Assembly (NCBI GenBank): GCA_030054135.1
Contig: JASGCN010000001.1
Location: forward strand, 18,013-82,012
Origin: Alphaproteobacteria bacterium
GTDB lineage: Bacteria > Patescibacteriota > Minisyncoccia > Phycocordibacterales > JABAAK01
Length of the DNA stretch: 64,000 bases
Direction: 5' to 3'
A program made the position numbers and the translations under genes. Positions 19,149-42,582 of the stretch are shown here, one piece after another. The first letter of the stretch is position 1, and each line of letters opens with the position of its first letter. The notes below the pieces were generated by a model. The model was not told the DNA's origin and made no database searches. It saw nothing but the letters and a program-made list of their open reading frames with translations.

Positions 19149-21230
19149 ATGTTTTTTATCACCACAACACGAATACGGGCATGCGTTCTTGTAATAATAA
19201 TTGCGAGTATATTTTTACTGCTATACTCATCTCATGGATATGCCATTAGCGTAGCAGGTGCAGTGGAAGATGCTCTTTCAACAATTCTTAAAGGATTGAT
19301 TTTATTAATTGCATCTATGTTGAACATCATACTTTCTATTGTTCTGACATTTGCAGAATTTACACTACGATTAGTAAGTTTGGTAATTAATCTTAATTTA
19401 AGCATTGTTGGATTTTTTATTAATTTTGGAATTTTTGGAATAGTGGCAAACATCTTAAAAGATATTATTAACCTATTTATTATCGGAGCATTGATATGGT
19501 TGGCAATAAAAAATCTTTTCACTGAAGAAGCAGAGGCTTCAATTGGGAAAAAAATGCTTATTATTTTTGCAACAATTATTGTAGTAAACTTTAGTGGGTA
19601 TATTATATTATTTCTTGTTGACGCGTCAACATATATATTACAGTTTTCTTCTTATTATTATATTGATTCTAGTCCAAGAGAAGGTTTTGATCCAAATCTA
19701 GTCAATTTTGTACAACACAATCTAAATATTGTAAGATCACTTAATACTGAAACAATAAACGTTGATAACGCATTGGGGATTATGTTCCCATTTCTAGGAC
19801 TTACAGCGGTGTTTTTTTTAATGTTTATATTTTTTAGAGTATGTATGCTTTTAATCATACGATTTATATACACACTTCTTATTATTATGTGCGCACCGTT
19901 GCTAGGAATACAATTTATTAATTCTGCTGCAAGTGGGAATGCTGGCATAGACTATCCTTTTAAAACACAAATAAAAGCAATAGTTGATGAATGGTGGAAT
20001 CAGTTGATAAAAGTATTTCTTTTTATCCCTATATTTTTGCTCGGTATTGGAATTCTTGGAGAAATAATTTCAGATCTCATTGTTCAGAGTGGGTCAAGTT
20101 TTTCAACTAAGCTCGATGTGAAAGGTGTGGCACTTGCACGTAATCAAACACAACTTGCATTTATTCTTCTCATGGTTATTGGATATGGCATTGTATTAAA
20201 AAAAGCTGTTGATTTTGTTGATAGTAAAATTGAAAAAACTATAACAAAAAAAACATGGGACTGGGCATATAGAAAATTTGTTGTTAGCCCTGCAGGACGT
20301 TTCGCAGGAAAAGCAGTTCAAATTGCAGAAAAATATAAACCTACACGCGCTATTTTAAATGGAATAAAATCAGCAGACGAATGGAGAAAAAATACAGACA
20401 ACAGATCTAATAAAGAAATATTTGCAAGTGCATATACTGCTGCAAAAAATAAATTTGAACCTACTGTAGAGCTTAAAAATAATGAATACATAAGAAAACC
20501 AAGCTCTACACTTAATAGGCTGCAAACACAATTAATTGATTTAGAAACAAGAAAAAATGTGGCCGCCAGTAAAAACCAATCAACTGAATCTTTCGATACT
20601 GAAATAAAAAAAATAGGGAAAGAAATAGGGCGTTTAAAAATTACCGAAGATGCAGAAGTAAAACAATATGCTACAAAACTTGCAGTTGATAGTGCTACAC
20701 CCAATTCAACACAAAAAGATGAAGACCAACTTATTAAAGCGGCAGAGAAAATACACAAAACCGCTATCACGCATACAGAAAAAATAGCTTCCATAAAAAA
20801 AAGAGATGACATTACTGATAAAGAAAAACAAATGGAAATTGGTAAAGTAGATACGATAGCAGGAGAAAATTTTTCTGCCGCCATGAATAGTATAACTAAT
20901 AGATCGAATCAAAAAAGTTATGAACAAAATATTCTAAACCCCAAGAGTAGATTTTTAGAAACTATGTATGGCGACGATTTTGCAAGAGTTGCGCGTGGAC
21001 AATCATCCCAAACTCCGCCATCTACATCAACTCCGCCGCCTGCATCAACTCCGCCATCTGCACCACTAGAATTGATGCCCCAAGAAGCACCACTAGAATT
21101 GATGCCCCAAGAAGCACCACTAGAATTGATGCCCCAAGAAGCACCACTAGAATTGATGCCCGAAGAAGGAACACAAGAAGAAGTAAATGCTACTTTGAGA
21201 GAATTGAAAAAAATAGTAGAAAATAAATGA
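19149..21230 (+). CDS. polytopic membrane protein, VirB6/TrbL-like candidate, with C-terminal Pro-rich tandem repeats
   Basis: At least 6-8 hydrophobic helices in the N-terminal 350 aa. Long hydrophilic C-terminal domain ending in PPSTSTPPPASTPPS and 4x APLELMPQE. Positioned just upstream of the VirB3/VirB4-like genes. Confidence 0.55.
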   Translation: MFFITTTRIRACVLVIIIASIFLLLYSSHGYAISVAGAVEDALSTILKGLILLIASMLNIILSIVLTFAEFTLRLVSLVINLNLSIVGFFINFGIFGIVANILKDIINLFIIGALIWLAIKNLFTEEAEASIGKKMLIIFATIIVVNFSGYIILFLVDASTYILQFSSYYYIDSSPREGFDPNLVNFVQHNLNIVRSLNTETINVDNALGIMFPFLGLTAVFFLMFIFFRVCMLLIIRFIYTLLIIMCAPLLGIQFINSAASGNAGIDYPFKTQIKAIVDEWWNQLIKVFLFIPIFLLGIGILGEIISDLIVQSGSSFSTKLDVKGVALARNQTQLAFILLMVIGYGIVLKKAVDFVDSKIEKTITKKTWDWAYRKFVVSPAGRFAGKAVQIAEKYKPTRAILNGIKSADEWRKNTDNRSNKEIFASAYTAAKNKFEPTVELKNNEYIRKPSSTLNRLQTQLIDLETRKNVAASKNQSTESFDTEIKKIGKEIGRLKITEDAEVKQYATKLAVDSATPNSTQKDEDQLIKAAEKIHKTAITHTEKIASIKKRDDITDKEKQMEIGKVDTIAGENFSAAMNSITNRSNQKSYEQNILNPKSRFLETMYGDDFARVARGQSSQTPPSTSTPPPASTPPSAPLELMPQEAPLELMPQEAPLELMPQEAPLELMPEEGTQEEVNATLRELKKIVENK
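21058..21165 (+). repeat. 27-bp tandem repeat x4 (caccactagaattgatgccccaagaag) inside the 3' end of the VirB6-like gene
   Basis: Three identical copies plus one variant. In frame; encodes APLELMPQE repeats. Confidence 0.85.
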
Positions 21231-21388: not shown

Positions 21389-21404
21389 TAATCACATGTG
21401 ATTA
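21389..21404. promoter_or_regulatory. perfect 16-bp palindrome taatcacatgtgatta, ~35 nt upstream of the VirB3-like start; candidate operator
   Basis: Exact reverse-complement symmetry in the only sizeable (207-bp) intergenic gap inside the cluster. Confidence 0.4.
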
Positions 21405-21437
21405 CCAATACAATTCAAAATGCTATGATACATATAT

Positions 21438-21836
21438 ATGCAATATAAAGTGCCACAAAATCTTGATATTAAAGATACTGTCATTTTTGGCTTATCTTTT
21501 ATGCAAATGATATATCTTGGAGGAGCTATTGGCTTATTTATTCTTCTTGTTCTTTTTTTAGGATTTTTACCTGGGATTATTTTTAGTACACCTATAGCAA
21601 TACTTGCAGTTTTGTTTTCTTTTTATCAAATTAACAATCAAACATTTGTTACGATATTTCAAGCGATGCTTTTGTACGCATTTCGATCACGTCTATACAC
21701 ATGGCAAAGAAACAAAATTGACAACATTGAACCAAAAATATTTTTAGCGAAAAATGATTACGCCCCCGATGCTAAATATAAAACAAGTGTTCGTGTAGAA
21801 GATTTAAAAACATCTCTCGATTTTAATCCAGAATAA
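21438..21836 (+). CDS. small 2-TM membrane protein, VirB3/PrgI-like candidate
   Basis: 132 aa with two adjacent hydrophobic helices. Immediately precedes the VirB4 N-domain gene, as VirB3-like proteins do in monoderm T4SS loci. Confidence 0.45.
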   Translation: MQYKVPQNLDIKDTVIFGLSFMQMIYLGGAIGLFILLVLFLGFLPGIIFSTPIAILAVLFSFYQINNQTFVTIFQAMLLYAFRSRLYTWQRNKIDNIEPKIFLAKNDYAPDAKYKTSVRVEDLKTSLDFNPE

Positions 21837-21839
21837 TCT

Positions 21840-22472
21840 ATGCCGCAGTCCACACAATCGTTTATTCCAATTAAAGAAATTCGTGACGGTATCATAGTGC
21901 ATGATGATGGAAGTCTTTCTGCTATTGTTCTTGTCTCTGCTATGAACTTTGATTTAAAATCTGCAGATGAACAACAAGCGACCTTATATCAATTTCAATC
22001 TCTCATTAATTCACTTGAATCTTCTACTCAAATTATTGTGCAGTCTCGCAGAGTAGACCTGAAAGAGTACCTTACATACTTACAAGAATTGTATGAGAAA
22101 CAAACAAATGATTTACTTCGTCTGCAAACAAAAGAATATATTGTATTTATAAAAAAATTTTTAGAGACGCATGATATTATGTCTAAACGATTTTTTGTTG
22201 TATTGCAATACGTTCCTCTATCAATAAAACAGGGGTTTACATCTCTATTTACATCTACACCATCAAAAAATAATGATGCAAATGCAATAGAAAAATCTTT
22301 TGAAGAAGCAAAAACTCAACTGGTACAAAGAATATCATTCGTGCAAAGTAATGTTCGATCATTAGGGTTGCGCGCAGTAATGCTCGATACTGAAGAAGCA
22401 ATTGAAACTTTTTATCAAACTTTTAATCCGGGAGACACTCAATCGCCTAAACAAAAAATTTCTGCAGAATAG
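21840..22472 (+). CDS. virB4: VirB4/TraC/CagE-family protein, N-terminal domain (separate ORF)
   Basis: The ...IPIKEIRDGIIVHDDGSLSAIVLVSAMNFDLKSADEQQATLYQFQSLINSL pattern matches the N-terminal CagE/TrbE/VirB region of VirB4-like ATPases. It terminates at TAG 17 nt before the next ORF, which is in a different frame. Confidence 0.6.
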   Translation: MPQSTQSFIPIKEIRDGIIVHDDGSLSAIVLVSAMNFDLKSADEQQATLYQFQSLINSLESSTQIIVQSRRVDLKEYLTYLQELYEKQTNDLLRLQTKEYIVFIKKFLETHDIMSKRFFVVLQYVPLSIKQGFTSLFTSTPSKNNDANAIEKSFEEAKTQLVQRISFVQSNVRSLGLRAVMLDTEEAIETFYQTFNPGDTQSPKQKISAE

Positions 22473-22489
22473 CTCTATACTATAGATAT

Positions 22490-24244
22490 ATGCCAACATC
22501 TGCGTCGGACTACCAAACATTTTCAAGTGGAGGGAACATATCCATTAGAGATATTCTTGCCCCAATGTCTATTAAAATAAACACGAAACACATTGAGCTT
22601 GGGGATAAAGTTGCTCGTACACTTTCTATTGTGTCATACCCTCGTTTTCTTAATAATGGCTGGCTTTCGCCAATTATTAATCTAAGTAGAGAATTTGATT
22701 TATGTATTTTTATACACCCGATTGATTCGAGAGATATCTTACGCCAATTTAGAAAAAAAGTTGCTCAAGTAGAAAGTCAAATTATTGATAGAGAGCGTCA
22801 TGGGCTTGTACGAGATCCACAACTTGATGTTGCTTTTAAAGATATTGAAGAACTTCGTAATAGCATACAACAAGCAACTGAAAAAATATTTAATGTTGGT
22901 GTATACATCACCATATATGCAGATACCGTTGAAAATTTAAATAGAACAGAGCAGGATATCCGAGCAGTACTTGAAGGAAGACTTATTTTTGTAAAGCCAA
23001 CTCTCTTTCAACAAGAAAAAGGATTTCAATCAACTACACCGCTTGGAGTAGATTCTCTTGAGATACATACAAAATTAAACACTGAACCCCTATCTAGTTT
23101 TTTTCCTTTTATTTCTTTTGATCTTTCTTCAGATAAGGGGATCCTTTACGGCATTAACCGTCACAATGCTTCTCTAATTCTTTTTGATCGTTTTTCTTTG
23201 CCAAACTATAACTCTGTTACTTTTGCAACTTCTGGAGCAGGAAAATCATACGCTATGAAACTTGAAATTATTCGTTCTCTTATGTTTGGAACTGATGTTA
23301 TTGTAATAGATCCAGAAAATGAATTTCGAAAACTTGCCATTGCTACAGGGGGGAAAACTTTTGATGTTTCTCTTAGTTCTGAAAGTCATATTAATCCTTT
23401 TGATCTCCCTACGCTTACCGAAGATGAATCTCTTTCTGATGCATTAAGAAACAATGTTATAAATCTTGTAGGACTATTTCGAGTTCTTCTTGGTGGACTC
23501 ACAGCTGAAGAAGAGTCTATTATTGATAGAGCAATAAATGAAACCTATGCTCTTAAAGATGTCACACCAGATATTGAAACTTTTGAAGGCCTAGAACCAC
23601 CACTTCTTTCTGATTTTGCAGTAGTACTTGCAGGTATTGAAGGAGGGAAAAATATAACATCTCGATTAAGTCGATATGTTACTGGTTCATGGTCTGGTTT
23701 TATGAATCAGCCAACAAATATAGACATCAATAAACAATTTATTGTATTTTCAATTCGTGATATGGAAGCAGATTTAAAACCTGCGGGTATGTATATTATT
23801 ACTCGCTATATTTGGAATCATGTACGAAAAACACTAAAAAAGAGGCTTCTCGTCGTGGATGAAGCGTGGGTTATGATGCAATCTGAAGACACGGCCCAAT
23901 TTTTATATGGGCTTGTTAAACGAGGAAGAAAATACTATCTCGGTGTTGGAACCATTACACAAGATGTGGGAGATTTTCTTAAAAGTCAATATGGAAAAGC
24001 AATACTTACGAACTCATCTCTTGTGTTGCTTCTAAGACAGTCCCCCACCACCATTGATCTTGTAAAAGAAACATTCAATCTCACAGAAAATGAAAAATAT
24101 CTTTTACTTGAATCTGATGTGGGAGAAGGACTTTTTATTGCGGGGCTTAAACGGGTTGCAATAAAAATTATTAGTTCATACACAGAAAATCAAATTATCA
24201 CCACAGATCCAAGTCAACTTGTACAAAAAATAAATAATGCCTAA
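22490..24244 (+). CDS. virB4: VirB4/TraC/CagE-family conjugation/T4SS ATPase, central and C-terminal ATPase part
   Basis: Middle-domain pattern (LGDKVARTLSIVSYPRFLNNGWL), Walker A ATSGAGKS, Walker B LLVVDEAW. Together with the preceding ORF the length is ~795 aa, typical of VirB4. Confidence 0.8.
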   Translation: MPTSASDYQTFSSGGNISIRDILAPMSIKINTKHIELGDKVARTLSIVSYPRFLNNGWLSPIINLSREFDLCIFIHPIDSRDILRQFRKKVAQVESQIIDRERHGLVRDPQLDVAFKDIEELRNSIQQATEKIFNVGVYITIYADTVENLNRTEQDIRAVLEGRLIFVKPTLFQQEKGFQSTTPLGVDSLEIHTKLNTEPLSSFFPFISFDLSSDKGILYGINRHNASLILFDRFSLPNYNSVTFATSGAGKSYAMKLEIIRSLMFGTDVIVIDPENEFRKLAIATGGKTFDVSLSSESHINPFDLPTLTEDESLSDALRNNVINLVGLFRVLLGGLTAEEESIIDRAINETYALKDVTPDIETFEGLEPPLLSDFAVVLAGIEGGKNITSRLSRYVTGSWSGFMNQPTNIDINKQFIVFSIRDMEADLKPAGMYIITRYIWNHVRKTLKKRLLVVDEAWVMMQSEDTAQFLYGLVKRGRKYYLGVGTITQDVGDFLKSQYGKAILTNSSLVLLLRQSPTTIDLVKETFNLTENEKYLLLESDVGEGLFIAGLKRVAIKIISSYTENQIITTDPSQLVQKINNA

Positions 24245-24626
24245 GCCAGCCCAAAAAAAAGAAAGCGACGGTGGTTCTTTACTTGGAAAATATTTTGTTG
24301 GGTGTTTTTACATAGTGCATACTATTATTGGATCAATGATATCTTCCTTGCTCATGGCAGGAGGTGTAGCATTAATCACTGGTATATTGACTTTATTCAT
24401 TGGTATTCCAGTATTTATGCTAGGATATATTTTGCGGATTACCATGGCAGTAATTACTTTTTTTATATTTTTTACAATAATGATTGCAGACAATAGACTG
24501 AGTTTTAATTTGGTTATACGACTTATACTTGGATTTGTTATTGAGTTAGCGCCTACACCAATATTTCTGTCGTCATATACACATTTTTTTATTTCCTACG
24601 TATTTCTATCCAAAACAAAAAAATAA
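24237..24626 (+). CDS. small polytopic membrane protein (3-4 TM)
   Basis: 129 aa, almost entirely hydrophobic helices. Overlaps the virB4 stop by 8 nt, which suggests translational coupling. Confidence 0.45.
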   Translation: MPKPAQKKESDGGSLLGKYFVGCFYIVHTIIGSMISSLLMAGGVALITGILTLFIGIPVFMLGYILRITMAVITFFIFFTIMIADNRLSFNLVIRLILGFVIELAPTPIFLSSYTHFFISYVFLSKTKK

Positions 24627-30778: not shown

Positions 30779-32149
30779 ATGTTATATCTTTATTTTTATA
30801 TGTTAAATGACCCTCTTTCGCAAACACCCGTACCACAAAATACAAATGATGAAAAAAAAGAAAAGCGTGTTACCATTGCGTCTGTTATTGCATTGTTGAT
30901 ATTGCTAGGATTAATAGCAATATTTTTTTTCTTTTTTTACAATAAAGATAAAACCAGCCAGCAAATAAATGAAAAAAAAACCGCAGGAACTCTCACCAGT
31001 GGCGAAGTTGTCCCCCAACTTAATCTTGATGATTTGTATAAAAAAACTCCTGACTATATACCTGATGAAGATATAGTATCAACTGCTCCGGATAGATCCC
31101 AAACATCTGCCAAGCCCCCCATCACACTTCCAATACCGCTTGTATTTAAAATATTCGATGGTCCTACCGCAGGATATAAAATACGAGAAGATACGGCTGG
31201 TATTACTCGAATAGACATAGTTGAAGGAGGCAGTGGTACACGATATTCAACACCACTTTTCCCCCCTGCGATATCTCGCGTTGGGGGAGGAGAGGTTACT
31301 CGTGTAAAAAAGGCACATATTTTTGATGCAAACAAAGTTCTTCTTATTTACGAAAATCAAAGTGATGAATTGCAAACAAATTCTGCATTTGTTCCTTTTA
31401 ATACGCTACAATCACAGGGCATAGAATTATTCTTAAAAAATATAAAAGCAACCACTAACAATGCAAATAAACTATTCTATTTACAAAAAACCCCTGACGG
31501 TTCTATTGGTGGTGTCATTGACGCTACTGATGCAAAATCGAAAACAATTATTTGGAAAAATGCAATTACACAATGGAATATACAGTGGGGGAATAATGAT
31601 CTCATTACTATAAAAACCCCACTCAGTGAAACACTAAGTAGTTTTGTATACCGTGCAGATCCAAATGGTATTAAACCGACAAAACGTACCCACGGAAGAG
31701 TATTGGGCACTTCAATTCTTTATCACGACGAACAAAACACTTCTGTGCAAAATTATATTTTAAATAAAAAATTTGTAACTGAAATAAAAACTCCTGAACA
31801 AAGTACTTGGGCGATTGAAACTACATTGCCAGAAAAATGTGCCGGTTACAAAGCTGTTTTTATTTGTGGATTACCCATTTATCTTCCTCAAATAACAAGA
31901 TCTGGGAATCCATTTGTATTCCCAGATTCATGGTATTTAGGAGATGCGACATTTGATGATATTATTATTCTTTTTGATAGTACCACAAAACAAAGATACG
32001 AATTGGTGAACCCAGATTCTACTACAGTTCAAAATCTTACCGATTCTGCACGATTTGATATTGTCGATCCGTACATTTCAAAAAAACTTACATTTTTCTT
32101 TTTCATTAACAATGTGGATCTCTCTTTATGGGCGGTTCGTTTGCAGTAA
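30779..32149 (+). CDS. membrane-anchored extracytoplasmic hypothetical protein (456 aa)
   Basis: N-terminal TM (VTIASVIALLILLGLIAIFFFFF) followed by a large hydrophilic domain. Confidence 0.45.
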   Translation: MLYLYFYMLNDPLSQTPVPQNTNDEKKEKRVTIASVIALLILLGLIAIFFFFFYNKDKTSQQINEKKTAGTLTSGEVVPQLNLDDLYKKTPDYIPDEDIVSTAPDRSQTSAKPPITLPIPLVFKIFDGPTAGYKIREDTAGITRIDIVEGGSGTRYSTPLFPPAISRVGGGEVTRVKKAHIFDANKVLLIYENQSDELQTNSAFVPFNTLQSQGIELFLKNIKATTNNANKLFYLQKTPDGSIGGVIDATDAKSKTIIWKNAITQWNIQWGNNDLITIKTPLSETLSSFVYRADPNGIKPTKRTHGRVLGTSILYHDEQNTSVQNYILNKKFVTEIKTPEQSTWAIETTLPEKCAGYKAVFICGLPIYLPQITRSGNPFVFPDSWYLGDATFDDIIILFDSTTKQRYELVNPDSTTVQNLTDSARFDIVDPYISKKLTFFFFINNVDLSLWAVRLQ

Positions 32150-32845
32150 AGAAAACTTTTTCTTGAAAAGCATATATTGAATAGCAGTGGCTATATTATT
32201 TACTATCCAATATAGCGCAATAACAGCATGAAGAAAGAATGAAATAATTGCTACAACTACTGGCAACACGTATAAAACATTTTTTTTCATCGTAATGGCA
32301 AAGTCTGTCTCACTCGCAGACGGGGGCGTATGTAGCTGCATAACATATGTTGCATACCATTGAGTTACTCCTACAAATAATGCAAGCAAAAAACTTCCTG
32401 CCACATACAAATCAATTGCTCCCAATGAACGCACAAGCGTTTCTGGATTTTTCACAAAAGAATATAAATGAGTCACATCAATTCCTTGTGTGCTTGCGTC
32501 AGTCAACACAAAATAAATTCCTAGATATAGGGGAATTTGTATGATAAGTATGACAATAATTATAAAAGGATTAATTCTATTTTTTCTATATACATCGATA
32601 ATCTGTATTCCTAATTCTTGTTTATTGTCAGCAAATTTTTTTTGCAATGTTACAATTTCCGGTTGAACTCGTGCGAGCATTTGTTGATTGTAATACATTG
32701 AGTATGAAAAAGAATATAGTAATAATTTTATCAGTATTACAAGAACAACTGTTGCTAATACTACAATACCTCCAGTACTATCCAATAAAAATGTATACAC
32801 ATTTGCGATTGGGTTATACACTATGTGTTGATACCATGTGAACAT
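32126..32845 (-). CDS. yidC: membrane protein insertase YidC/Oxa1 (short form)
   Basis: Pattern ...LLYSFSYSMYYNQQMLARVQPEIVTLQKKFADNKQELGIQIIDVYRKNRINPF...QIPLYLGIYFVL typical of YidC. Lies in the conserved rpmH-rnpA-yidC arrangement. Confidence 0.75.
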   Translation of the reverse strand: MFTWYQHIVYNPIANVYTFLLDSTGGIVVLATVVLVILIKLLLYSFSYSMYYNQQMLARVQPEIVTLQKKFADNKQELGIQIIDVYRKNRINPFIIIVILIIQIPLYLGIYFVLTDASTQGIDVTHLYSFVKNPETLVRSLGAIDLYVAGSFLLALFVGVTQWYATYVMQLHTPPSASETDFAITMKKNVLYVLPVVVAIISFFLHAVIALYWIVNNIATAIQYMLFKKKFSLLQTNRP

Positions 32846-33467: not shown

Positions 33468-34826
33468 ATGGGCATGCAATCTGATATTACAAACATCCAA
33501 GAGTTGTGGCAATCAGTTCTTTCTACTTTTAAAACTCAGCTATCAGAATCTCAATTTAAAACATGGTTTGAAAAAGTACATGCACTTCGTCTTGATGATA
33601 ACAATTGTCTCGTTCTTGGAACTGAAAACAATTTCACTAGAGATTGGATTATGCAAAAATATCAAAAACAAATTGCCAGTGAAGTTGCTAAACGATACGC
33701 ACACATCAAACACATAAAAATAATAACTTCACGCCGAACTGCACCACCTCAAAAGGCACATCAAATTTCTACGCCAAACACAGCGCTCCCTATTGAATCT
33801 ATAGAAAAGAAAAATAATTTAAACCCACGATTCACATTTAAAAATTTTTATGTTGCTCCTTGTAATGAATACGCACACGCAGCAGCGCAAGTAGTTGCTA
33901 CTCGACTAGGTATTGCATACAATCCATGTTTTATTTACGGAGCAAGTGGTTGTGGCAAAACTCACCTCATTCAAGCAATAGGGAATAAAGTTGCTGCTAT
34001 GTATCCCAATATGAATGTTCGATACATCACTGCAGAAGCATTCACAGACGCATACGTGCAAGCATTACGTACAGAAAAAATGCATGAATTTAGAAAAGAA
34101 TACCAAAATACACAACTCCTCATCCTTGACGATGTACATTTTTTTCAGAAAAAAATTCAAACTGCTGTTGAACTTTTTCACCTATTTAACCATCTCCACA
34201 ACAACAATTGGCAAATAGTATTCGCTGCAGATTGTCACCCGAATCTTATTTCCGAGATTGAAGATCGTGTGCGTACTCGTTTTGCCGCAGGAATGATTCT
34301 TGATATTAACTCAATAGACAATGAATCGATGATGCTTATTGCGAAAAAGAAAGCAGAACAGATGGAATTAAATATGGATGCAGAAGTGTTTGAGTATATT
34401 ATTAAACATGTCAATACCAGTGTTCGCGAGCTTGAAGGTGTTTTCAAAAGTCTTGCTCTTTATCAAGAAATACAAAAAAAACCTCTTACTCTTTCTAATG
34501 TGCAACATTTTATTAAAAATAATCTAAAACCACACGCGTCTACAAATCAAAAAGATATTATCGAAAAAATATGTGAATTTTATGAAATATCACCTTCTGC
34601 GATTACCTCCAAATCAAGAAAACAAGAATTTGTACTCGCTCGTCAAATGATTATGTACGTAATGCGTGAATGTCTTGATATTTCTTTTGCAACAATCGGA
34701 GCAAAAATGGGGGGCCGCGACCATACCACCACCATGCACGCATGTGAAAAAATTAAAAAACGATTGACAACTGATAGGGATTTAGTTATCCAGTTAGAAA
34801 AAATAAAACGCCTTCTTAATCTTTAA
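33468..34826 (+). CDS. dnaA: chromosomal replication initiator protein DnaA
   Basis: AAA+ Walker A GASGCGKTHL, Walker B LILDDVHF, and a C-terminal DNA-binding domain of the DnaA signature type. Confidence 0.9.
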   Translation: MGMQSDITNIQELWQSVLSTFKTQLSESQFKTWFEKVHALRLDDNNCLVLGTENNFTRDWIMQKYQKQIASEVAKRYAHIKHIKIITSRRTAPPQKAHQISTPNTALPIESIEKKNNLNPRFTFKNFYVAPCNEYAHAAAQVVATRLGIAYNPCFIYGASGCGKTHLIQAIGNKVAAMYPNMNVRYITAEAFTDAYVQALRTEKMHEFRKEYQNTQLLILDDVHFFQKKIQTAVELFHLFNHLHNNNWQIVFAADCHPNLISEIEDRVRTRFAAGMILDINSIDNESMMLIAKKKAEQMELNMDAEVFEYIIKHVNTSVRELEGVFKSLALYQEIQKKPLTLSNVQHFIKNNLKPHASTNQKDIIEKICEFYEISPSAITSKSRKQEFVLARQMIMYVMRECLDISFATIGAKMGGRDHTTTMHACEKIKKRLTTDRDLVIQLEKIKRLLNL

Positions 34827-35248: not shown

Positions 35249-36379
35249 ATGTACTTTACAACCAACACAACTTTACTGAAAACAGTTTTAAACACATTAA
35301 TTAAAATTCAATGGAAAGATGTAACACAAACACACGGGACTCCTCTGACGCTTTCCTTTGAGGACGATACCCTAACGTTAAGTGTCGCAAGTTTTGATAT
35401 GAATGCTTCGTACACTATTCCAATAGAAAATAAAGAAAAAAAAGTTGGGAAGGAAGTTGTTCTTTTGGAGGCGTTTCAATCTATTATCGATCCGCTAACA
35501 AATACACAGTGTGTTGTTAAAAGAGAAGACAATGAAATACATATCCAAACACAGGGAAGTAAATCAAGAATAATTATTCCTCATTTTGAAAAAGAACAAG
35601 TGCAACCAAATATTCAAGATCCACAAAAAGGAGAACAATTCGATATTTCAAGAGAAATTTTAATTGAAGGATTGCGTGGAGTGCAAACATCAGCGTCATC
35701 TTCCACCATGAGACCAGAACTTGCTTCTGTGTATATGTATACAAAAAATAGCACAGTCTATTTTGTTGCAACGGATACATTTCAATTATCTGAAATGCGT
35801 TTTTCTGTTGAGGCAAAGAAAGAAATTGAAGTGCTCATTCCTCAAAAAACAGCGCATTCGCTTGTAAAATTGTTTGAAAATCTTATATCTGATAATGTTG
35901 TTATTACAAAAACAAATTATGGTGTGTATTGTGAGTCAGAAGGATGTGTGGTGTACGCGCGAACAACGCAAGGAAACTTTTTTGATTATAAAGCAGCATT
36001 GCCAAAAACATACAATGTTGAAATAGTATTGTTAAAAAGTGATGTAACGAATTTTTTCAAGAAAGCAAGATTATTTGCCGACGGGGTACATAGAGTCTCA
36101 ATTGTCATTGAGGACAAAAAAACTGTTCAATTTGTTTTTAAAAATGATCACATGGGAGAAACAAAAGACATTCTTATTGCGCGAGAAATAACAGGAGACG
36201 GCTCTCCTCGTTCGTATAATTACAAATATATACAATCTGCTCTACAAACAATAAAAGATGACTTCGTTATGTTCCGTTTTGTCATTGGTGGTGGGGGGTC
36301 AATGTGCATTACAGGAGTTTCAAATACAAATTATCTAAGTATAATCGCACCACTTATCGAAACAGACGAATTAAAATAG
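35249..36379 (+). CDS. dnaN: DNA polymerase III beta subunit (sliding clamp)
   Basis: ~376 aa. Directly downstream of dnaA. Three-domain clamp-like length and N-terminal pattern. Assigned mainly from context and size. Confidence 0.7.
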   Translation: MYFTTNTTLLKTVLNTLIKIQWKDVTQTHGTPLTLSFEDDTLTLSVASFDMNASYTIPIENKEKKVGKEVVLLEAFQSIIDPLTNTQCVVKREDNEIHIQTQGSKSRIIIPHFEKEQVQPNIQDPQKGEQFDISREILIEGLRGVQTSASSSTMRPELASVYMYTKNSTVYFVATDTFQLSEMRFSVEAKKEIEVLIPQKTAHSLVKLFENLISDNVVITKTNYGVYCESEGCVVYARTTQGNFFDYKAALPKTYNVEIVLLKSDVTNFFKKARLFADGVHRVSIVIEDKKTVQFVFKNDHMGETKDILIAREITGDGSPRSYNYKYIQSALQTIKDDFVMFRFVIGGGGSMCITGVSNTNYLSIIAPLIETDELK

Positions 36380-40353: not shown

Positions 40354-42045
40354 TTACAAAGAAGTTATATTTCCTACAGTAGATTCAAGTTCTTGAAGAG
40401 AAGTTTCTCCACGGCACACTTTTACCAATCCATCTTGCATAAGAGTTGGGAGTTGTTGTGACACTATTGCTTTTTGTATATCGCGGGCGCCACCATTTTG
40501 AAGCATTACTTCTTCTACTTCTTTAGTTACCAAAAACAATTCATAAATACCAGTTCGTCCTTTGTATCCTTCATAACAGTTAGGACAGGTGTTTGATTTT
40601 TCGCCTGGTGCAAACATAGACGTAAGCATTGGATTATCTGCCTTGTATCCAACGGGTAGTTCCGCAATAATTTTTTCAAGAATAGTCTTTTGTTCTGGAG
40701 AAGGTGTGTAAGGCACTTTACACACTGGGCATAATTTTCTAAGTAATCGTTGTGCCATAATTACATTGATAGAACGAGAGAATACTTTTGGGTCTATTTT
40801 CATTTGCATAAGACGAGGAAGAGCCCCGATTGCATCGTTAGTGTGCAGTGTTGAAAGTACCAAGTGTCCAGTGAGAGCTGCGTCTACTGCAGTTTGTGCA
40901 ACCTCTCCATCACGAATTTCTCCAACCAAAATAACATCTGGGTCTTGTCTTAAGATCGCGCGCAATCCTCCTGCGAATGTATATCCTTCTTCTACTTGAG
41001 TTTGTACTAATCCGGGCAATACATATTCAATTGGGTCTTCAAGGGTAATTATTTTTAATTCAGGATTTTTAATAAAATTAAGTAATGAATACAGCGTTGT
41101 TGTTTTTCCTGACCCAGTTGGTCCAGTAGTGATAATCATACCGTGTGGTTTTTCTATTTCTTTTTTTAGCACAGAAAGTATTACAGGGTGTATTCCTAAT
41201 TTTTCAATATCAACGATAACATTTTTTGGATCAAGTATACGCAATACAAACGATTCGTGTTGTCCTTCAGGAATACTTGACGCACGAATGCGTAACTTTC
41301 GATCTACCATATCAATAGTAAATGCGCCGTCTTGAGCTTCATCAATGATATTAATTTTCATACCAGCAACCAATTTCATGCGGATAACAATCTGCCTGTA
41401 TTCGTCAGCCTTGAGTTCATGCATGACTACGAGCACTCCGTCAAGTCGAAAGCGAACAACTCCACCTTCGGGGGCTGCTTCAATGTGTATGTCGGATGCA
41501 TTTAATGCAACTGCTCCAGAAACTATGTATTCAATATTTTTTGATATTTTTGCGGATCGTTGGAGTGTGTGTAATGAGAAAAGTAATTTTTTTACTGATT
41601 GCACGGTTTGTGGAGTATTCGTAATAGCATCAAGTTCTTCGTTGAGGATGCTAATCTCTCCCAATTTAGTTGCAGATGTAAGAACAATGTCTTTATATGA
41701 ATCCCAAAACAAGTTAAGAGTTCGTGTTGAGCACACAAAAAGCTCAGGTTGATATTTTTTTTCTAAAAGCATTTTTAGTGTTTTGAGAAATATTTCTGAC
41801 CGTGGATTACGACAAGCAATTTTTATTTTTTTTTGCATACGGTAAAAAATTGCCATTTGTGCTTCGCGAGCTTCCTTTTCTGTAAGAATTTGTAGTGCAT
41901 TGTTATCAAGATCCACAGAAAATGGAGCCATATAGGGAAGTTCGTTTATCTCTGATATATATTGAACAAGACGCTCTTCTTCTTCAGTAAGATGAGTTTT
42001 ATGTATCTCATCAAATTCTTTGATAGGTGAACTATGTTGCATCAT
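40354..42045 (-). CDS. type II/IV secretion-family ATPase (GspE/PilB-like)
   Basis: Walker A GPTGSGKTT, Asp box, His box. C-terminal tetracysteine CPVCK...CPNC. Start set at the ATGATG at 42045. Confidence 0.85.
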   Translation of the reverse strand: MMQHSSPIKEFDEIHKTHLTEEEERLVQYISEINELPYMAPFSVDLDNNALQILTEKEAREAQMAIFYRMQKKIKIACRNPRSEIFLKTLKMLLEKKYQPELFVCSTRTLNLFWDSYKDIVLTSATKLGEISILNEELDAITNTPQTVQSVKKLLFSLHTLQRSAKISKNIEYIVSGAVALNASDIHIEAAPEGGVVRFRLDGVLVVMHELKADEYRQIVIRMKLVAGMKINIIDEAQDGAFTIDMVDRKLRIRASSIPEGQHESFVLRILDPKNVIVDIEKLGIHPVILSVLKKEIEKPHGMIITTGPTGSGKTTTLYSLLNFIKNPELKIITLEDPIEYVLPGLVQTQVEEGYTFAGGLRAILRQDPDVILVGEIRDGEVAQTAVDAALTGHLVLSTLHTNDAIGALPRLMQMKIDPKVFSRSINVIMAQRLLRKLCPVCKVPYTPSPEQKTILEKIIAELPVGYKADNPMLTSMFAPGEKSNTCPNCYEGYKGRTGIYELFLVTKEVEEVMLQNGGARDIQKAIVSQQLPTLMQDGLVKVCRGETSLQELESTVGNITSL

Positions 42046-42105
42046 ATTTCTAGTGTAGCACCTTACTGAGATAGTGGTGGTATTGATAAATGCTATACTC
42101 AAAAT

Positions 42106-42582
42106 ATGTATTTCAAGATGACCAATGAAGAAGATGTTCGAGAAACGGCACAAAAAATATTAGCATATTGTGGTTCGCATAAAAATAAAATTGGTGCTAC
42201 TGTTCTTTCTCTTGAAGGAATTCTTGGAGCAGGCAAAACCACCCTCACTAAAGACATCGCCATATGCATTGGAGTTACCGATACTGTAACATCTCCTACA
42301 TTTGTTATTCGAAAAGAATATCAAGCATATCACCCACAATTTGAACATTTTTTTCATTGCGATGTGTATCGATTTGAATCTCCAGATGAATTGAAAGCAA
42401 TACAATGGAGCGATATGTTGCAAATGAAAGATACCCTCATCGTTGTTGAATGGGGAAACATTATCAAACAATATCTTCCGCCATTTGCATTTCGTGTAAT
42501 TATTACTATTGAAAAAGAAGAACGCATTGTTGAATTCATAGATCCTCATACAAGGAAAGATGATAGTGTCACCATTGTATGA
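42106..42582 (+). CDS. tsaE: tRNA threonylcarbamoyladenosine biosynthesis protein TsaE
   Basis: P-loop LEGILGAGKTTLTK and size typical of the YjeE family. Confidence 0.75.
   Translation: MYFKMTNEEDVRETAQKILAYCGSHKNKIGATVLSLEGILGAGKTTLTKDIAICIGVTDTVTSPTFVIRKEYQAYHPQFEHFFHCDVYRFESPDELKAIQWSDMLQMKDTLIVVEWGNIIKQYLPPFAFRVIITIEKEERIVEFIDPHTRKDDSVTIV

Follow-up and report, generated by a model that had tools for sequence, protein, structure and literature searches.

A VirB4 ATPase in two pieces: adjacent TrsD-like and ATPase genes in the chromosomal type IV secretion locus of a probable Patescibacterium

Is a VirB4 ATPase that is spread over two open reading frames (ORFs) in different frames a broken gene, or a protein made in two pieces? 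The question is raised by a type IV secretion system (T4SS) locus in a stretch of 64,000 nucleotides (nt) of contig JASGCN010000001.1 (assembly GCA_030054135.1), the whole of which is called the window below. ORF1 (21840..22472, + strand, 210 amino acids (aa), frame 0) runs from ATG 21840 to TAG 22470-22472, and after a spacer of 17 nt (22473..22489, +) ORF2 (22490..24244, +, 584 aa) begins at ATG 22490 in frame 2, a shift of +2 which is equivalent to −1. An earlier note on this DNA had given these coordinates, the stop and the restart in the other frame, all of them exactly. It had left side by side a genuinely bipartite VirB4, a frameshift that inactivates the system, a programmed frameshift and an assembly error. 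We find that the locus is very probably the standard T4SS ATPase module of Patescibacteria (CPR, or candidate phyla radiation), in which a PrgI/VirB3-like gene, a TrsD-like gene and a VirB4 ATPase gene are co-oriented, and that its VirB4 is a genuine two-polypeptide protein. Among the four readings the bipartite one is thus retained, given that the two products are collinear with full-length VirB4 and that the split is kept in every relative examined. This two-gene arrangement has already been described and is not new; the earlier note had not identified ORF1 as a protein of the known TrsD/TraD type.

ORF1 carries the N-terminal pattern of VirB4 that the earlier note had recognised. Three profiles of full-length VirB4 match its product within their first ~155-175 positions, namely NF045971 (VirB4-like, CD1110 family; positions 1-154 of 752, E 1e-7) and NF045975 (a full-length VirB4 model; E 1.5e-9), both from NCBIfam, and TIGR00929 (positions 7-174, E 3e-6). 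The Pfam family PF26593, TraC-like, is recorded for this exact protein as a precomputed match (E at most 1e-5). A search of the sequences of the Protein Data Bank (PDB) with a profile built from the ORF1 alignment returned nothing relevant. The protein was also modelled as a single chain with AlphaFold2, using an alignment of 25 homologues, and the model had a pLDDT (predicted local distance difference test) score of 78.6. When it was compared to PDB structures with Foldseek, the top 14 matches were all TrwK/VirB4 chains of the R388 T4SS (probability 0.96-1.0), and the rest was noise. The fold of the model is like that of the N-terminus of TrwK. By hydropathy, ORF1 encodes a soluble protein with zero hydrophobic segments. 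It ends 8 residues past a conserved GDTQS motif, and its relatives end 5-10 residues past it. Taken on its sequence, ORF1 is predicted to be a TrsD/TraC-like protein, corresponding to the detached first ~175-200 residues of VirB4, that is, to the first half of its N-terminal domain.

The remainder of VirB4, which the earlier note had rightly described as bearing Walker A and B, is encoded by ORF2. It matches NF045971 over positions 176-733 of 752 (E 9e-113) with 378 bits, where the cut-off is 325 bits, and both motifs are intact: Walker A, SGAGKS, at ORF2 residues 248-253 (23231..23248, +), and Walker B, LLVVDEA, at residues 453-459 (23846..23866, +). The score with TIGR00929 was under threshold (114.8 versus a cut-off of 643), as is expected, being normal for a divergent monoderm-type VirB4. 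Pfam matches were PF19044 (P-loop_TraG), AAA_10 and DUF87, and the VirB4 C-terminal domain of known structure, PDB 4AG5, was matched with an E-value of 8e-38. Residues 105-538 of ORF2 align to TrwK residues 294-735, and by extrapolation the start of ORF2 would map near TrwK residue 190. TrwK residues 15-400 make up the N-terminal domain of a canonical VirB4 (PMC9259494), and with this alignment the cut therefore falls within the N-terminal domain itself and does not coincide with its border to the ATPase. The proposal that ORF1 and ORF2 together reconstitute a canonical VirB4 consequently holds for their collinearity, and fails for the division into an N-domain and an ATPase. ORF2 thus contains the second half of the VirB4 N-terminal domain followed by the P-loop C-terminal ATPase domain. 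The single chain of ~750-830 aa with a complete N-terminal domain that characterises the VirB4 family is not encoded at this locus.

The same two sizes are found in relatives. Homologues of ORF1 numbered at least 120 among the matches listed (47-60% identity, ~95% coverage), and all 120 were 199-233 aa long. For ORF2 the number was at least 119 among the matches listed (65-74% identity); all 119 were 581-636 aa long and none was of ~800 aa. Some ~1,860 cluster representatives (50% identity) match ORF1 with an E-value of 0.001 or less, and we surveyed the best 150. In this set 149 of the 150 were stand-alone proteins, not full-length VirB4, the sole fused one being P0249. Some TrsD homologues (P0134, P0161, P0182, P0171 and P0254) have long disordered C-terminal tails rich in Pro, Gln and Ser (100-230 aa) or N-terminal extensions, which is unexpected for a mere detached VirB4 domain.

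The junction between the two genes was compared in 80 loci from different GTDB species and in three individually looked-up relatives, 82 of which retain downstream DNA. Nearly all hosts are Patescibacteria (Paceibacterota, Kaiserbacteria, Zambryskibacteria, Taylorbacteria and others), and the 80 loci are titled as CPR, a few generic or evidently mislabelled ones aside. This comparison of orthologues, a check that the earlier note had put forward, gave a clear-cut result, as the split is conserved: TrsD-like protein and ATPase are encoded by separate ORFs in 82 of the 82 related loci with downstream DNA. The gene order is PrgI(VirB3)-TrsD-ATPase, and in 82 of 84 related loci the gene directly upstream of the TrsD-like one is PrgI-like. 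Each of the three relatives examined individually has PrgI, then a ~210-aa PF26593 “TraC-like” protein, then a ~600-aa P-loop_TraG ATPase. Spacers are mostly of 0-17 nt, with a few of 30-115 nt and four of 420-507 nt. The frame of the second ORF relative to the first is 0, +1 or +2 in 21, 36 and 25 of the 82 loci respectively, all 21 in-frame cases having an intervening stop, and the stops used in relatives include TAA, TAG and TGA. Neither a lesion through frameshift nor programmed frameshifting nor a faulty assembly can produce such a pattern of conservation.

Two departures were seen within this set. In L016, L019, L044 and L071, an insertion of 420-507 nt separates the TrsD-like gene from the ATPase gene, which leaves room for an extra small gene. 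In L030 and L061, the ATPase ORF reaches ~1,266 aa, double the normal length, which suggests that it is fused to the next gene downstream or that a stop codon has been lost.

The single fused TrsD-VirB4 protein, P0249, permits a direct comparison. It is 797 aa long and is encoded at positions 544-2937 of CAZTUR010000004.1 (GCA_964615945.1, locus L087), in a locus of the Patescibacteria type with PrgI upstream and yidC, rnpA, dnaA and dnaN adjoining. Residues 5-197 of ORF1 align to residues 8-209 of P0249, and residues 14-578 of ORF2 to residues 225-789 (54% identity), leaving only a linker of ~15 aa between the two alignments. By these alignments, the two window proteins are exactly collinear with one VirB4 chain. 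The P0249 linker is polar, is devoid of the MGIFDFLKKK-type peptide described below, and contains “...GMGGVAS...”, in which an earlier start codon of the ATPase may survive as a relic. The clade thus has both fusion and fission, fused forms being rare. Elsewhere, VirB3-VirB4 fusions exist in Campylobacter and in Actinobacillus-type systems, and show that VirB3, the N-terminus of VirB4 and the ATPase are separated by boundaries which are evolutionarily labile through fusion and fission. These cases go in the opposite direction (fusion as opposed to fission), and no VirB3-VirB4 fusion is present in the window.

In relatives, the ATPase ORF opens with a conserved peptide of its own, M[GSA][ILF][FL]D.F.K.KK, and such an initiator peptide is a hallmark of an independently initiated protein. 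Among loci L001-L085 its types are MGIFDFLKKKK, MALLDFLNR and MSFLGKLFKKK, all amphipathic and Lys-rich, and it is followed by ILPQEIY or DFIPE.MF. The few shorter ATPase entries in databases look like the product of different start-codon calls. The window ATPase begins where its relatives have the segment “(D)FIPE..F”, and a trace of the peptide, sought in any frame around 22380-22520, was not found there. The ORF1 tail “KQKIS” was considered as a trace of the relatives' “GGKQKSS”, left by an old fusion, and was rejected, being too short and of too low complexity.

The literature on TrsD agrees with this layout. TrsD, whose prototype is that of pGO1 and which has no assigned function, is remotely homologous to the VirB4 N-terminus, and its gene is usually adjacent to virB4; no other T4SS component is as abundant in Patescibacteria, and 1,664 of its 2,272 copies are associated with virB4 (Quinonero-Coronel et al. 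2025, PMC12102498). TrsD is unmentioned in the main text of Guglielmini 2014 (PMC4027160). In Ca. Southlakia epibionticum ML1 the T4SS is essential (Wang et al. 2023, PMC10633639), and so is the TrsD copy beside VirB4 (PMC12102498, citing Wang et al. 2023). Such systems have other components in the vicinity of virB4, among them a VirB6-like protein and VirB2-like pilins, and a relaxase and a coupling protein are usually missing (PMC12102498). The window locus shares with the chromosomal T4SS of Patescibacteria (MPF-FATA-related) the PrgI/VirB3-TrsD-VirB4 order and a chromosomal site near dnaA. Its close homologues, among the matches listed, are all from Paceibacteria, Kaiserbacteria, Zambryskibacteria and Taylorbacteria. 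The window locus does not differ from these systems in kind, except that its ATPase is without the MGIFDFLKKK-type peptide.

The same pair, TraD/TrsD plus TraE/TrsE, is present on the staphylococcal plasmids pGO1 and pSK41 (MPF-FATA, pGO1 subclass). On the pSK41-like plasmid CP030600, traD (227 aa) is followed, after 20 nt, by a gene for a 670-aa VirB4-like DUF87 ATPase, which is the same layout. The staphylococcal system serves conjugation and includes a relaxase and a coupling protein, whereas the window system is chromosomal and belongs to an epibiont-type genome. Single-chain VirB4 proteins (R388 TrwK, Agrobacterium VirB4, F TraC, and those of the Gram-positive CD1110/PrgJ type) have the same overall domain content and order, the Walker A and B motifs and a VirB3-like partner encoded just upstream. 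The canonical protein is one chain of ~800 aa, however, whereas the window VirB4 consists of two polypeptides cut inside the N-terminal domain.

We propose that the TrsD-like protein and the ATPase would assemble non-covalently into a VirB4-like unit. In R388, VirB3 wraps the VirB4 N-terminal domain, and the N-terminal domains mediate VirB4-VirB4 dimer contacts (PMC9259494). By analogy, the TrsD-like part would most likely be located at the membrane-proximal face, supplying that part of the N-terminal domain. It could bridge PrgI and the ATPase ring, and in this way tether the hexamer to the membrane channel.

Alternatively, the TrsD-like protein may be an independent accessory factor (an assembly chaperone, an adaptor or a regulator) derived from the VirB4 N-terminus, with the 584-aa ATPase working alone. 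Many TrsD homologues do have long disordered P/Q-rich tails or N-terminal extensions, as would suit such a factor. We nevertheless consider it improbable: the synteny is tight, with very short spacers, in all of the 82 loci; the fused relative has both parts collinear; and the two parts add up to a whole VirB4 profile in which every segment is present once.

Several observations do not fit easily with a genuine two-piece VirB4 in the window. As regards ORF1, the TrsD/TraD model NF041427 was matched over positions 20-175 of 201 (E 2.4e-6) with 27.5 bits only, versus a cut-off of 200 bits. A local Pfam scan of ORF1 was empty, even at E 10, presumably because the local Pfam copy is without the PF26593 model. 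The fold similarity to TrwK is moderate (query TM-score, TMq, at most 0.51), and an hhalign comparison of the ORF1 family with staphylococcal TraD gave a probability of 55% (E 1.2e-4, 166 columns, which is near full length, 19% identity). As regards the junction, a sigma-70 scan revealed no full −35/−10 promoter in the spacer, and no promoter excess in the region as a whole. Moreover, the window ATPase is alone among ~200 examined in being without the MGIFDFLKKK-type peptide, and is ~22 aa shorter. The window junction is thereby atypical exactly at a run of six A (22453..22458, +, seen directly in the sequence) which lies near the 3' end of ORF1 and would allow fusion. There, both frames are open: that of ORF2 is closed by TAA at 22448-50 and open from 22451, the first start codon in it being ATG 22490, and one extra A or a −1 slip would give an ORF1/ORF2 fusion. 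The position of this A6 run is therefore what had led to the suspicion of a frameshift. Finally, a contig of an independent Logan assembly (run SRR23378605) is the same as the window over 4,341 nt, A6 run and spacer included, but possibly comes from the same reads as the metagenome-assembled genome (MAG), so that a systematic read error could be common to both.

These last points bear on a cryptic fusion or a homopolymer error in sequencing or assembly, whereby the real gene would encode one ~800-aa VirB4 and a base would have been lost from the A run 22453-22458. The frames that a single added A would join, the ATPase that uniquely does not have the N-terminal peptide of its split relatives, and the rare fused forms of the clade (P0249) are all in line with such an error. 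It is very unlikely all the same. The junction is identical in the Logan assembly, the split is conserved in relatives, and the end of ORF1 is the one typical of the family with respect to GDTQS. The would-be linker (KNFCRIALYYRYM) appears to resemble AT-rich non-coding DNA, unlike the polar linker of P0249, and the spacer bears the typical start-site box of this genome. Also, runs of six or more A number 274 on the + strand of the window, so that one at the junction is unremarkable, and the longest ORFs, up to 1,353 aa, are intact despite these runs, which indicates that the assembly is not prone to homopolymer errors.

A recent inactivating frameshift would have turned VirB4 into a pseudogene and left the T4SS dead, as two ORFs in different frames beside a homopolymer run might lead one to think. 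This is hardly credible, as the same split is found at the same place in every relative, with scattered frame relations. Neither ORF is short for its family, ORF2 shares 72-74% identity with its homologues, its Walker A and B are intact, no further stops occur, and TrsD homologues have been reported as essential in a cultivated Patescibacterium (PMC12102498).

A programmed −1 ribosomal frameshift, or transcriptional slippage, on CAAAAAAT would yield a fused VirB4, alone or together with the separate products. On paper, a tRNA-Lys paired with AAA could shift to the AAA of the −1 frame at 22454-22457, and this frame is open from 22451 through ORF2. We give this explanation next to no credence, however. 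The A6 register is CAA_AAA_ATT, and the slippery motif whose presence the earlier note had envisaged is missing, no canonical X_XXY_YYZ heptamer being formed. The frame relation is unconserved in relatives (21/36/25), with a stop retained in the in-frame cases; the ATPase genes of relatives each begin with a conserved Met-peptide of their own; this AT-rich window abounds in A6 runs; and a downstream stimulatory structure was not seen, though none was sought. Read-through of the TAG, or an alternative genetic code, is irrelevant, since the continuation is in another frame and relatives use TAA, TAG and TGA.

The different frames of the two ORFs are an incidental detail, because the frame relations of relatives are scattered, their in-frame cases have a stop, their ATPases have their own Met-peptide, and a second assembly is identical. 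As for the missing peptide, three facts favour a true loss specific to this lineage: the Logan contig is identical, ORF1 ends where members of its family normally end, and the spacer holds a start-site box. We tentatively put forward, as a somewhat doubtful possibility, that the ATPase peptide is a docking or membrane-targeting device compensating for the lost link to TrsD; it might have been dispensed with here, where a leaderless promoter in the spacer would allow the two halves to be transcribed and dosed separately. If this is true, the lineage is a natural experiment on the roles of the VirB4 N-terminal subdomain and of the ATPase peptide.

How the two halves may be expressed was examined at the level of start signals. 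A convincing Shine-Dalgarno (SD) sequence was found at none of 46 gene starts of the window. A box of consensus TAYAMT, 5-9 nt upstream, was present at 12 of these 46 starts, as compared to 29 of 2343 other ATGs (1.2%; Fisher p 3e-12). These −10-like boxes read TATACT, TACACT or TATAAT, for instance at starts 2994-, 3018+, 4983+, 5609+, 14833+, 17324+, 21438+, 22490+, 24654+ and 25847+. A ribosome-binding site before ATG 22490, another point raised in the earlier note, did not turn up: the 17-nt spacer has no SD sequence and contains instead a TATACT box (22476-22481) 8 nt before the ATG, in the context TATACT-N8-ATG. The start of the PrgI gene has the context TGCTATGAT-N8-ATG and was flagged as promoter-like, at 21402-21429, by the sigma-70 promoter scan. 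ORF1 has neither SD nor box, and starts 3 nt past the PrgI stop. In the closest relatives (55-59% identity), TATACT, TATTAT or TACAAT is found 6-9 nt before the ATG of the ATPase.

This suggests that leaderless-type transcripts are widespread in this Patescibacterium, and it is the statistics of the −10-like box that suggest a leaderless promoter. No description of leaderless or SD-less initiation in CPR was found in the literature. Translation of ORF1 would probably be coupled to that of PrgI, because the gap is only 3 nt, while ORF2 would probably start on its own, possibly on a leaderless transcript from the TATACT box.

For annotation, these results mean that flags such as pseudogene, frameshift or assembly error should not be put on a split VirB4 in CPR/Patescibacteria, and that for the 210-aa ORF “hypothetical” should give way to the name TrsD-like VirB4 N-terminal subdomain protein. 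They reinforce the notion that the essential T4SS of Patescibacteria uses a two-piece VirB4, a natural split-protein system. What is added here is small, namely that the two proteins are exactly collinear with a rare fused relative and that the ATPase half has a conserved peptide at its N-terminus. Both findings could guide structural work on the assembly of VirB3, the VirB4 N-terminal domain and the ATPase ring in monoderm-type systems.

The genes on either side of the pair are consistently oriented with it. Immediately upstream, a small PrgI-family (VirB3-like) membrane protein of 132 aa is encoded at 21438..21836 (+; PF12666, E 5e-9). It has two hydrophobic segments, within residues 15-52, and its gene ends 3 nt before ORF1. 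Downstream, a 129-aa protein with four hydrophobic segments is encoded at 24237..24626 (+), overlapping the ATPase stop by 8 nt. It matched no family in Pfam or NCBIfam, and probably belongs to the same T4SS operon; in relatives, the gene after the ATPase encodes 163-188 aa or ~335 aa. Further upstream, at 19149..21230 (+), lies the gene of a polytopic membrane protein of 693 aa with ~11 hydrophobic segments by hydropathy, for which there was no Pfam match. It precedes PrgI, in a position like that of the large unannotated genes (750-811 aa) of relatives, and may be taken as a candidate VirB6-like channel component. Its C-terminus, after a Pro/Ser/Thr-rich stretch, is made of a 27-nt tandem repeat (21063-21170) that encodes PLELMPQEA three times and then PLELMPEEG.

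The window is chromosomal: housekeeping genes are found throughout, and PNPase, UvrD, PBP1, PolA, LeuRS and a PilB-type ATPase are encoded in it. The MAG is labelled “Alphaproteobacteria bacterium” at NCBI (locus tag QM526_00215). The closest named homologues of its LeuRS are from Patescibacteria, Moraniibacteriota and Falkowbacteria (68-69% identity), the GC content is 31-39% in 2-kb windows, and the T4SS is of monoderm type. The label is probably wrong, the relatives of both LeuRS and the T4SS being Patescibacteria/CPR. The genes yidC (32126-32845, −), dnaA (33468-34826) and dnaN (35249-36379) lie ~9 kb downstream of the T4SS genes and at the minimum of the cumulative GC skew, at ~34-36 kb, and the replication origin is therefore inside the window, with the T4SS locus ~9-15 kb away. 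T4SS loci of Patescibacteria are often near the origin (PMC12102498).

On the other side of this region, at 40354-42153 (−), a T2SSE/PilB-type ATPase of 599 aa is encoded (PF00437, E 4e-105), with ruvB and a PBP1-type gene close by. Near the T4SS there is thus coding for a type IV pilus or a system resembling the type II secretion system, as described for Saccharibacteria.

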